The translations under genes and the position numbers were made by a program. The notes beneath the pieces were generated by a model that made no database searches, was not told the origin of the DNA, and saw only the letters and a program-made list of their open reading frames with translations. A stretch of 1,953 nt of DNA from Dictyostelium discoideum (lineage: Eukaryota). This document shows positions 1 to 1,953 of this stretch, one piece after another (position 1 is the stretch's first letter; each line of letters opens with the position of its first letter). The stretch spans positions 1-1,953 of the forward strand of contig CH709166.1 of assembly GCA_000004695.1 (NCBI GenBank). Reading direction: 5' to 3'.

Positions 1-96
1 CTCCATTGATTTCATTCTTAAATCAAAGGATTCAGCGCTATTAGAGGCAGAGGTACTACTACTAGAGGCATCATTATATTTAACAGTGGTAGACAT
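1..96 (-). CDS. 5' end (first 32 codons) of a gene running off the left window edge; Ser/Thr-rich N-terminus MSTTVKYNDASSSSTSASNSAESFDLRMKSME
   Basis: The reverse complement of 94-96 is ATG, preceded on the minus strand by caataaaatATG (an A-rich Kozak-like context) with an in-frame stop two codons upstream. The frame stays open for 32 codons to position 1. An AT-rich putative promoter lies upstream on the minus strand (97-215). It is absent from the ORF track, presumably because of the length cut-off. Confidence 0.35.
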   Translation of the reverse strand, partial: MSTTVKYNDASSSSTSASNSAESFDLRMKSME

Positions 97-212: not shown

Positions 213-316
213 GGAGGAATTCCCAAATAAAATAAATCAAATTGTTTTAGTTTTTAGTGCCACTATTTATACGTTTTTATTTTCTTAAAAATTTCGCAAA
301 ACTCAAAAAAATAAGA

Positions 317-418
317 GTTTTCGACCCTTCACAACTTTGTGCATAGTGTCGGTTCGGAATTTTTCAGTTTTTCGACCTTGTGCAATGATCGCGTCATTGT
401 GCCGGTTCGAAATTTTTA
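317..418 (+). repeat. Diverged tandem duplication of about 50 bp inside the left arm
   Basis: The two units share gttttcgacc ... ttgtgca ... tgtg(t/c)cggttcg(g/a)aattttt. Confidence 0.7.
383..399 (+). other. Perfect 6-bp stem / 5-nt loop hairpin, caatga-tcgcg-tcattg, in the left arm
   Basis: Read directly. The homologous position in the right arm (about 1519-1545) is disrupted but carries a different palindrome, ttgcgcaa. Confidence 0.6.
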
Positions 419-451
419 CTTTTCTTTCGAAAATTTTTTTATTCTTCTCAT

Positions 452-466
452 GTTCTAGAACATTCT
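452..466 (+). promoter_or_regulatory. Three-unit heat-shock element (nTTCnnGAAnnTTCn) in the left arm, embedded in the 14-bp perfect palindrome atgttctagaacat (450-463)
   Basis: gTTCtaGAAcaTTCt matches the Pelham consensus CTnGAAnnTTCnAG at 13 of 14 positions. A TATA-like aaataaataaat lies about 30 bp further inward (497-508). Confidence 0.45.
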
Positions 467-518
467 AAAAAATTATCTTAAATATTTGGGAAATTCAAAT
501 AAATAAATGTTATTCATA

Positions 519-530
519 ATATATATATAT
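519..530. repeat. (AT)6 at the inner end of the left arm
   Basis: Read directly. The right-arm counterpart has 7 units. Confidence 0.85.
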
Positions 531-615
531 GATAATATGGATTCTGCTGCAAGATTTGATATTCTTTATTGAAATATCAGCGAGAATGATTGACAAAACG
601 CGGACGTTCAGTTTT

Positions 616-888
616 TTACTTTTCATGCTCTGCAGCATCCTTAATCTGGATGTGATTTTCATCACCGTGACGACCACAGAACACACCACGGGTTGCCATA
701 TAGTCGGCGAGCATGTTACCACAATGACCGGCATGACCTTTAACCCACTGCATGGTAAACCCAATCTTACGGTCTTTCATTAACTGTACTTTGTCAGTTA
801 ATGTAATCGACAGTTCTTTGTTAGATATGGATTCCCCATCACTCTTCTTCCTGTTGTTTGCTTTCCAACGGGGAAGATAACTCGTCAA
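616..888 (-). CDS. RNase HI-like protein, C-terminal portion only (TTG start in the track; probable gene fragment or degenerate homolog)
   Basis: The translation ...ANNRKK...[12 protein letters not shown]...[23 protein letters not shown] aligns with E. coli RNase HI ...TTNNRME...EVILSTDSQYV...[23 protein letters not shown]. The TD (D70 region) and HAGH...D (D134 region) motifs are present. The roughly 30-aa basic protrusion is shortened to 16 aa, and the N-terminal strands carrying D10 and E48 are absent. An in-frame stop lies 3 codons upstream of the TTG. Confidence 0.5.
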   Translation of the reverse strand: [90 protein letters not shown]

Positions 889-903
889 ACGTACTCAGAA
901 TCT

Positions 904-909
904 GAATAA
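904..909 (+). promoter_or_regulatory. AGGAGG Shine-Dalgarno-like hexamer with no canonical start codon at proper spacing
   Basis: ctaggaggc. The only start-like codon downstream is TTG at 922 (12-nt spacing), which opens a 23-codon hydrophobic ORF (922-993, LSIAISIPLKVAFNSATFLFTAN). Confidence 0.25.
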
Positions 910-1055
910 ACTAGGAGGCTTTACGCGTTCTTGTCGATAGCAATCTCAATTCCGCTTAAGGTTGCTTTCAACTCAGCTACGTTTTTATTTACAGCAAATT
1001 AATGCAGACTTTGGAGACATCTTAAATAACATCGTTATTGGCGATATGACTACAG

Positions 1056-1265
1056 ATGGAAAGTACTGGTGCCCTGAATACTTCCAGGCATCCGGCCGGA
1101 TCTGGCGAAGACAACACGGTTAAGATCTGGTTTTCTGATCCAGTCTTTGCCCTGAGCTACCCACGCTTTAAAATCCTGTTTGAACCATCAGTACATGTTG
1201 AAGATATCGATGTGCTGCACGAAGACTGTGTGACAGCAAAGCCGCTATTACTAAAGGGGATCTGA
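1056..1265 (+). CDS. Hypothetical 69-aa ORF of unknown function
   Basis: ATG-initiated ORF from the track. Codon usage resembles the RNase H-like ORF, but there is no recognisable motif and no ribosome-binding site. It lies divergent from the RNase H-like ORF with a 167-bp spacer. Confidence 0.2.
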   Translation: MESTGALNTSRHPAGSGEDNTVKIWFSDPVFALSYPRFKILFEPSVHVEDIDVLHEDCVTAKPLLLKGI

Positions 1266-1346
1266 CGACTCGTGATCATTGGTAATCTCCCGCAAACCAA
1301 CATTATTGATATGGCGTTTAAGGTCTATGATAAAGAAAACCCCACC

Positions 1347-1387
1347 AAATTAAAAATATATTTTATTAAATTATATTTTATATTAAA
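1347..1387 (+). repeat. 41-bp AT-rich segment X on the inner side of the right arm; inverted copy at 1734-1774
   Basis: The reverse complement of 1734-1774 equals 1347-1387 with 2 mismatches. Confidence 0.75.
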
Positions 1388-1388
1388 C

Positions 1389-1402
1389 ATATATATATAT
1401 AT
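1389..1402. repeat. (AT)7 at the inner end of the right arm
   Basis: Read directly. Confidence 0.85.
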
Positions 1403-1454
1403 TATGAATAACATTTATTTTTTTGAATTTCCCAAATATTTAAGATAATTTTTT

Positions 1455-1470
1455 AGAATGTTCTAGAACA
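1455..1470 (-). promoter_or_regulatory. Mirror-image heat-shock element in the right arm (aGAAtgTTCtaGAAca), with the same 14-bp palindrome at 1458-1471
   Basis: Same motif as the left arm. A TATA-like atttatt lies inward at about 1413-1424. Confidence 0.45.
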
Positions 1471-1496
1471 TGAGAAGAATAAAAAATTTTCGAAAG

Positions 1497-1600
1497 AAGA
1501 GTAAAAATTTCGAACCGGCACAATGACGCGATCTTTGCGCAAGGTTGAAAACATAAAAATTCCGAACCGACACAAGGCACGAATTTGAAGGGTCGAAAAC
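1497..1600 (-). repeat. Corresponding tandem sub-repeat inside the right arm
   Basis: aaaatttcgaaccggcaca ... aaggttgaaaaca is followed by aaaattccgaaccgacaca ... aagggtcgaaaaca. Confidence 0.7.
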
Positions 1601-1698
1601 ACTTATTTTTTGAGTTTTGCGAAATTTTTAAGAAAATAAAAATGTATAAATAGTGGCACTGAAAACTAAAACAATTTGATTTATAGAATTCCGACTTA

Positions 1699-1714
1699 GG
1701 GCGGGTGGGATGGG
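1699..1714 (+). other. Canonical G-quadruplex motif GGGcGGGtGGGatGGG (loops 1,1,2) immediately outside the right arm; begins with a single TTAGGG
   Basis: Read directly. It is an isolated G-rich island within sequence that is more than 85% AT. Confidence 0.6.
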
Positions 1715-1720
1715 ACTGAA

Positions 1721-1734
1721 ATATATATATATAT
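1721..1734. repeat. (AT)7 microsatellite
   Basis: Read directly. Confidence 0.85.
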
Positions 1735-1774
1735 TTAATATAAAATATAATTTAATAAATTAAATTTTTAATTT
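1734..1774 (-). repeat. Inverted copy X' of 1347-1387 on the outer side of the right arm
   Basis: See above. Together with the (AT)7 tracts at 1389-1402 and 1721-1734, it forms a palindrome of about 55 bp interrupted by the right arm plus a 28-nt GC-rich tail. Confidence 0.75.
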
Positions 1775-1896
1775 ATATTATAATATCACAACGATGAAAA
1801 TTACACCTTTTAAAGCAACTTTAAATTATATTAAAAGTGGATTTAAAGTCCTATAAAAAAGTCACTTAAAAATTAATTTAAAAGCAATTTTTTAAA

Positions 1897-1953
1897 TGAC
1901 CTTTAAAATGACCTTTAAAATGACCTTTAAAATGACCTTTAAAATGACATTTT
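1897..1953 (+). repeat. Tandem array of the 12-mer TGACCTTTAAAA (4 perfect copies plus a variant partial copy), truncated by the window end
   Basis: Unit copies lie at 1897-1908, 1909-1920, 1921-1932 and 1933-1944, with tgacatttt at 1945-1953. Degenerate relatives (aaagtcc, aaagtcac, aaagcaa with the same A/T spacing) extend leftward to about 1800. Confidence 0.85.

Follow-up and report, generated by a model that had tools for sequence, protein, structure and literature searches.

A Dictyostelium discoideum contig in which the ends of two DIRS-1 copies very probably enclose decayed jumbo-phage DNA and direct their promoters away from it

What kind of element places two inverted arms with heat-shock motifs around a centre of quite different base composition, and in which direction would such arms be transcribed? 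This question is raised by the window analyzed here, the complete 1953-bp sequence of an unplaced contig of D. discoideum AX4. Two inverted arms of about 300 bp (approximately 232–530 and 1391–1684), which are 94% identical to each other, enclose a centre of about 860 bp, and the GC content is 40–50% in the centre (42% in the core) against 8–25% in the flanks. An initial annotation likened the arms to the DIRS-1 inverted terminal repeats (ITRs) and proposed that their heat-shock elements (HSEs) drive transcription into the centre. Our analysis indicates that the window is very probably part of a D. discoideum DIRS-1 cluster, in which the ends of two copies lie tail-to-head with decayed jumbo-phage DNA between them, and in which the ITR promoters diverge. 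The apparent "inverted-repeat element with core" is in fact two retrotransposon ends placed back to back (Table 1).

The full window was reproduced in the independent assembly GCA_054883475.1, where it lies within a 43.8-kb contig and matches at 99.8% identity, with four mismatches and no gaps. The two sequences differ only by TTT (AX4) versus AAA at 179–181, adjoining a (GT)n run, and by A (AX4) versus C at 1949; no mismatch falls in the arms or in the core. Given that the same arrangement is found in GCA_054883475.1, the arrangement of the window represents real genomic DNA. Comparisons were carried out with 20.7 kb of the GCA_054883475.1 contig around the window (coordinates given as L013) and with further D. 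discoideum DNA (coordinates given as L014), together 35.7 kb, and with a 46-kb sample from the sister species D. firmibasis, D. citrinum, and D. dimigraforme.

Table 1 Features of the 1953-bp window. Copy A and stub B are the two DIRS-1 copies
Feature	Position	Strand	Remarks
DIRS-1 ORF1 (GAG) 5′ end, copy A	1–96	-	ATG at 96; ORF runs off the window
DIRS-1 left ITR, copy A	217–542	-	Outer terminus at 542, inner EcoRI end at 217–222; primers DM_133 and DM_132
TATAAATA box, left ITR	264–271	-	Reads toward ORF1, away from the core
HSE of left ITR	453–465	+	TTCTAGAACATTC, three perfect alternating nGAAn units
Core, jumbo-phage relic (805 bp)	543–1347 (L013 9957–10761)	.	Between two DIRS-1 termini
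Phage RNase HI pseudogene fragment	550–983	-	aa 92–240 of the 504-aa protein of Erwinia phage AH06; three in-frame stops, one frameshift
Junction of phage fragments	984–988	.	About 1.1 kb of colinear phage DNA missing: RNase H N-terminus, gp152, gp151 N-terminus
Phage "virion structural protein" pseudogene fragment	989–1347	+	aa 98–228 of the 437-aa AH06 gp151; frameshift and stop
DIRS-1 right ITR, stub B, including the right extension (about 1348–1390)	1348–1691	-	Inner EcoRI end at 1686–1691; primers DM_135 and DM_134
HSE of right ITR	1456–1468	-	TTCTAGAACATTC, three perfect units, identically dead fourth unit
TATAAATA box, right ITR	1645–1652	+	Reads toward the ICR, away from the core
DIRS-1 ICR (internal complementary region), stub B	1692–1786	-	Contains the circle-junction sequence TTTTTAATTTATATTAT
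Non-DIRS-1 AT-rich repeat	1787–1953	.	No match in full-length DIRS-1; copies of about 75% identity at several L013 sites
12-bp tandem unit TTTAAAATGACC, five copies	1890–1952	.	TRF; within the non-DIRS-1 AT-rich repeat

The ends of the ITRs were mapped with the published DIRS-1 cloning primers DM_132 to DM_135 (supplement of Friedrich et al. 2015, PMC4482531), and a primer site was found at every arm end. In the left ITR, DM_133 (inner end) lies on the plus strand at 217–232 and DM_132 (outer end) on the minus strand from 538 to 516, and in the right ITR, DM_134 (inner end) lies on the minus strand from 1691 to 1666 and DM_135 (outer end) on the plus strand at 1350–1380, where 29 of its 31 positions match. 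DM_135 also finds a complete match (31/31) in the ICR, on the minus strand from 1771 to 1741. A full-length DIRS-1 of 4820 bp in L014, consisting of a left ITR (6555–6879), ORF1, an ICR (10934–11028), and a right ITR (11029–11374), confirmed the left ITR, the GAG leader, the ICR, and the right ITR of the window. The left arm is 97% identical to the left ITRs of L013 and L014, and the right arm is 91–93% identical to the right ITRs of L014. Thus, the proposal that the arms are DIRS-1 inverted terminal repeats was borne out by alignment, with 91–97% identity to the ITRs of a full-length copy.

The neighbouring sequence is also that of DIRS-1 on both sides, with ORF1 after the left ITR, and with the ICR inside a right ITR that carries the right extension. 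Positions 1–216 are 97–99% identical to the matching segment of other DIRS-1 copies, and the GAG start in the window, MSTTVKYNDASSS..., extends in L013 as an ORF starting at 11208. When this extended ORF was used as a query, it retrieved 196 DIRS-1 ORF1 proteins, typically of 335 aa, at up to 97% identity. On the right, the ICR aligns with those of L014 along 95 bp at 94–96% identity, and no DIRS-1 match was found past 1786. DIRS-1 homology therefore ends there, and the right-hand copy is a stub of 437 bp (1786–1348). Read along the minus strand from 1953 to the GAG ATG at 96, the order is thus non-DIRS-1 repeat, ICR, right ITR with its extension, core, left ITR, and leader.

The AT-rich repeat next to the stub belongs to a family with further copies in L013, at 1–660, 3440–4200, 4900–5657, 6173–6929, and 9200–9520. 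Several copies of about 760 bp, located upstream in GCA_054883475.1, are 98–99% identical to one another, and the copy in the window is about 75% identical to them. L013 also contains a 660-bp direct duplication of DIRS-1 internal sequence (14852–15513 and 19806–20466, 98% identical), which brackets a 4.3-kb DIRS-1 copy with a left ITR and without a right ITR. This copy looks like an entry of DIRS-1 into DIRS-1 by homologous recombination, not by end-specific recombination.

Primer mapping further determined the orientation of the arms. The core is bordered by the outer ITR termini, and the inner (EcoRI) ends lie on the outside. The arms are not the ITR pair of one element but the right end of the 437-bp stub and the left end of another copy. 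Compared with an intact DIRS-1 (Tdd-1), to whose ITRs the arms correspond in sequence, they come from two tail-to-head copies and enclose inter-element DNA instead of the DIRS-1 body, which codes for GAG, a tyrosine recombinase, and RT/RNase H/methyltransferase. A single DIRS-1 bounded by these arms was not found in the window: besides the orientation of the termini, the core is unlike DIRS-1 and the arms differ in age. When the inner two thirds were compared with the D. discoideum ITR consensus, identity was 99.5% for the left arm and 92.0% for the right arm, and a direct comparison of the arms gave 91.5%. The ITR pair of the intact DIRS-1 in L014, by contrast, agrees at all 289 of 289 aligned positions and has a private G→T variant in common. 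This agreement is consistent with the replication model, which has a single template give rise to both ITRs of each new copy.

Between the arms, identity rises to 97.8% in the outer approximately 90 bp. Within this part, a private TC→GA double change in the fourth HSE unit (448–450 and 1471–1473) is common to both arms, and it occurs in none of six other D. discoideum ITRs. This pattern suggests that local gene conversion between the closely spaced, facing ITR ends homogenised the outer approximately 100 bp.

We then analyzed the core, which shows no similarity to full-length DIRS-1 at either the protein or the DNA level. At the DNA level it matches Erwinia Agricanvirus jumbo phages alone, with 68–76% identity to their RNase HI and virion structural genes. 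The RNase HI fragment was recognised by Pfam RNase_H (E = 4.6e-9), and tblastn gave 55–56% identity to phage AH06; the RNase H-like ORF on the minus strand at 616–888 is part of this fragment and is annotated as the D. discoideum gene DDB_G0294298, with 99% identity to the recorded protein, and another member of that protein's cluster is encoded on the 43.8-kb contig. Neither the RNase H-like ORF nor ORF 1056–1265 is a DIRS-1 gene; both are jumbo-phage pseudogene fragments without similarity to full-length DIRS-1. On the same ground, we rejected the core as DIRS-1's own RNase H.

Homologues of both fragments were found in phiKZ-like jumbo phages alone. The Ea35-70 group gave the best matches (50–54% amino acid identity), and the others included pEa_SNUABM_48, Salmonella SA002, Pseudomonas phiKZ relatives, Goslar, and the Serratia 2050HW group. 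We take these homologue-bearing phages to be nucleus-forming. In phage AH06, the genes for RNase H and gp151 are divergent neighbours with gp152 between them, and the window keeps the order and orientation of both genes. The same holds throughout the Agricanvirus phages (Ea35-70, RAY, Simmy50, and AH06), which resemble the window in both genes, in their order, and in their orientation, with 50–56% amino acid identity. In contrast to these phages, the window has only internal fragments of the two genes, from which about 1.1 kb has been lost and in which stops and frameshifts occur, and it resides in a eukaryotic chromosome. Neither gene survives as an intact coding sequence, the two pseudogenes together having at least four stops and at least two frameshifts.

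The base changes in the core show the same decay. At 368 sites where the phage homologues agree with one another, the window differs at 64, with 34 changes from GC to AT at 178 sites against 13 from AT to GC at 190 sites, and its GC content is 42%, compared with 46–53% in the phage loci. The stops, the frameshifts, and the AT-biased changes together point to long neutral decay in an AT-biased genome. No donor closer than approximately 55–59% amino acid identity was found among viral contigs, bacterial genomes, metagenomes, and a set of 5.8 billion proteins, and exact searches of viral contigs with a 31-mer of the arm and a 34-mer of the junction gave no match. A blastn search against E. coli genomes and plasmids also gave none, so the core is not an artefact of a cloning host or vector. 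Within the 20.7 kb of L013 (approximately ±10 kb), no phage homology was detected outside the core. Taken together, we hold with good confidence that the phage DNA is real, resident, and old. A literature search for DDB_G0294298, or for a transfer of RNase H from phage to Dictyostelium, found nothing relevant; the relic is apparently unreported, and it carries no sign of function.

Both arms contain the motif gTTCtaGAAcaTTCt, far above chance. The sequence TTCTAGAACATTC occurs just twice in the window, against 0.04 matches expected by chance, and sequences that differ from the Pelham box CTnGAAnnTTCnAG at a single position lie at 455–468 and 1453–1466, against 0.09 expected. Together with the 14-bp palindrome ATGTTCTAGAACAT at 450–463 and 1458–1471, these are the three-unit array, the 13-of-14 Pelham match, and the palindrome of the initial annotation, all of which are present in both arms as described. 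In the 35.7 kb of D. discoideum DNA, every perfect three-unit array lies in a DIRS-1 ITR (eight ITRs) and none elsewhere, with 0.33 expected per 20.7 kb, and a single unrelated match was found in the 46 kb of the three sister species. This distribution rules out chance occurrence in AT-rich DNA.

Each array consists of at least three contiguous alternating nGAAn/nTTCn units, as an HSF site does. The motif is the known DIRS-1 ITR heat-shock element, to which heat-shock factor trimers would be expected to bind at these copies. It belongs to DIRS-1 itself and was present in all D. discoideum ITRs examined. Their consensus comprises four perfect units, aGAAtgTTCtaGAAcaTTCg, of which the window arms retain three; the fourth unit of the left ITR (448–450) is inactivated by a change from GAA to TCA on the plus strand. 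The window arms thus differ from an intact DIRS-1 in being without the fourth HSE unit, as well as in the reduction of the right-hand copy to a stub. The HSE is positioned about 75 nt from the outer ITR terminus and about 190 bp upstream of the TATAAATA box. The array resembles the Pelham consensus of Drosophila hsp70 and its nGAAn arrays in having three perfect alternating units and 13 of 14 positions of CTnGAAnnTTCnAG. In hsp70 promoters the HSE lies within about 20–30 bp of the TATA box, whereas the window array is located about 190 bp upstream of the TATA box that it most likely serves.

Across species, the ITR keeps its outer approximately 75 nt and its TATA-proximal approximately 110 nt, whereas the segment between them has been exchanged or lost (the outer part is also kept in D. 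dimigraforme). The TATAAATAGTGGCACT sequence is retained in the ITRs of D. discoideum, D. firmibasis, and D. citrinum, and the corresponding box of D. dimigraforme is GTATAAAAGG. D. firmibasis has only a weak form of the HSE (GAAttTTCtgGAg), no HSE was found in D. citrinum, and D. dimigraforme lacks the whole stretch through a deletion, so that among the four species sampled a perfect array is specific to D. discoideum. Sequence conservation among these species does not support an importance of the HSE for DIRS-1, and it more strongly supports the TATA box and the termini.

The DIRS-1 ITR heat-shock elements and the promoter activity of both ITRs have been known since the 1980s and were re-examined in 2013–2015. 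The left ITR is represented only slightly in the DIRS-1 sense mRNA and the right ITR almost completely; GFP was expressed from the right ITR only in the forward orientation, with no GFP from the reversed right ITR when assayed without heat shock (PMC3950715). Heat shock induces a 900-nt antisense RNA from DIRS-1 (PMC3950715), and heat induction of DIRS-1 E1 RNA comes from earlier literature as cited there. Both ITRs act as strong promoters when their inner ends face a reporter, and opposed DIRS-1 ITRs with their inner ends toward an insert silence that insert (PMC4482531). Since the outer termini face the core in the window, the documented ITR promoters, if this published behaviour applies to these copies, would diverge from the core. 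The lITR-insert-rITR cassette of Friedrich et al. 2015 (PMC4482531) provides a close comparison. In both the cassette and the window, foreign sequence of a few hundred bp lies between opposed DIRS-1 ITRs, but in the cassette the inner (EcoRI) ends and the promoters are directed toward the insert, whereas in the window the outer termini are directed toward it and the promoters away.

The positions of the boxes agree with this direction. The only canonical TATAAATA boxes in the window are the two listed in Table 1, each about 190 bp from its HSE on the side away from the core, and both point outward, unlike the promoters of a convergent dsRNA cassette. The initial annotation had placed a TATA-like tract about 30 bp inward of the HSE; AAATAAATAAAT is indeed present at 497–508, but it is just generic AT-rich ITR terminus and not a canonical box. 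The terminus, including this tract, is conserved because it pairs with the ICR.

On this basis, each HSE would serve as an upstream enhancer for the promoter of its own ITR, with transcription initiating near the inner (EcoRI) end and reading into the DIRS-1 body. Transcription from the left arm would run leftwards and give sense GAG mRNA, and transcription from the right arm would run rightwards across the ICR and give an antisense RNA of the E1/lasDIRS type. The two promoters would then be divergent in the window, with the core behind both. An RNA crossing the whole region would fold into a nearly continuous ITR stem of about 310 bp with the core as its loop, and any hairpin dsRNA would therefore come from the ITRs and not from the core.

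Both junctions between DIRS-1 and phage DNA are sharp. The outer terminus of the right ITR, ...TTTTTAATT, ends at 1348 in the canonical form, as in three other copies, and the phage-derived sequence follows directly. The left ITR terminus is ATCCATATTATC, with ATC instead of the ATT of the canonical ATTTATATTATC, and the right end reads ...AATT. DIRS1-like elements start and end with ATT, which corresponds to the 3-bp circle junction, and they integrate at an identical target trinucleotide without target-site duplication (PMC3266345). The complete termini on both sides speak for integration events of the recombinase type and not for random breakage. The most economical, and most likely, history would be two DIRS-1 insertions of different ages into a phage tract that was once longer. 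Phage DNA would have been taken up by the bacterivorous amoeba and fixed as junk DNA, two DIRS-1 integrations at ATT sites, separate in time and each using the normal recombinase ends, would have followed, and later rearrangements, typical of the nested DIRS-1 cluster in L013, would have removed the remainder. No further phage DNA that would directly support a longer tract was found within ±10 kb.

Several other explanations were weighed against this reading. Two arms of about 300 bp that are 94% identical and surround a centre of about 860 bp are what would be expected if 217–1691 were one element, either a non-autonomous DIRS-1 with an internal deletion or a transposon of the foldback or MITE-like kind that has 300-bp repeats and a captured gene fragment. 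Such an element would have to carry its arms inside-out relative to DIRS-1, have DIRS-1 sequence extending past both of them (leftwards as the GAG leader, rightwards as the ICR), and hold a core without similarity to DIRS-1. Its inner arms would differ in age (99.5% versus 92.0% to the consensus), while the ITRs of one element are identical, and no second copy of the 217–1691 unit was found in 82 kb of Dictyostelium DNA. These data contradict the foldback element and the internally deleted DIRS-1, both of which we rejected, and the one-element explanation is so improbable that it can practically be set aside. Only slightly more credit is due to the core being an artefact, that is, a chimeric clone, a misassembly, or contamination of the AX4 shotgun reads by bacterial or phage DNA. 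An artefact would suit a small, unplaced contig whose core has a GC content sharply unlike that of its flanks. Against this stand the identical arrangement within the 43.8-kb contig of GCA_054883475.1, two sharp junctions that lie at complete DIRS-1 termini and not in low-complexity DNA, and the stops, frameshifts, and AT-biased decay in the phage genes; moreover, no phage, plasmid, E. coli, bacterial, or metagenomic sequence exceeded about 55–59% amino acid identity. An artefactual core is thus highly improbable, and we rejected an assembly chimera.

The remaining alternatives accept the DIRS-1 ends and the phage DNA, and they concern how the locus would be transcribed or how it arose. In the model of the initial annotation, both arms fire toward the centre, and transcripts induced by heat shock would converge and overlap, with dsRNA formed over the RNase H-like ORF as well as ORF 1056–1265. 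The HSE arrays are symmetric and can act either way, the TATA-like sequence at 497–508 and a (TA)7 run at 516–530, about 55 bp coreward, lie between HSE and core, and an insert is indeed silenced by opposed ITRs that are cloned in the reverse arrangement (PMC4482531). We nevertheless consider inward firing decidedly improbable, given that the outer ITR termini face the core, that the conserved TATAAATA boxes are on the far side and point away, that a reverse-oriented right ITR gave no reporter expression (PMC3950715; no heat shock used), and that the sequence from HSE to core is ITR terminus conserved for ICR pairing. The outward boxes and the silent reversed ITR, together with the orientation of the termini, speak directly against the convergent transcription into the core that had been proposed, though a cryptic heat-induced start between the HSE and the outer terminus may lead out of an ITR toward the core. 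With regard to origin, a single capture could have placed the phage fragment where a right end and a left end of DIRS-1 adjoin, in a circular intermediate or tandem dimer, with end-joining either at a break made by the recombinase or between the ends of linear cDNA. Such a capture would account for two complete ITR termini abutting phage DNA, the right end still with its ATT, and for the lack of phage DNA past the DIRS-1 pieces. It would also account for the private TC→GA change that both arms share and six other ITRs lack, since private variants can be common to both ITRs of one element. However, identity between the arms is only 91.5% in their inner two thirds, and these parts lie at unequal distances from the consensus, as expected of two copies of different age, in which case local gene conversion would explain the shared TC→GA; no precedent for such a capture was found in the literature consulted either. 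We regard a single capture as unlikely, and two insertions of different ages remain our preferred history.

The DDB_G0294298 relic is a rare clean trace of DNA transfer from phage to eukaryote in a bacterivore, situated exactly between DIRS-1 termini. If the phage fragment was captured in a single event after all, this would mean that recombination or cDNA intermediates of DIRS-1 can capture foreign DNA.
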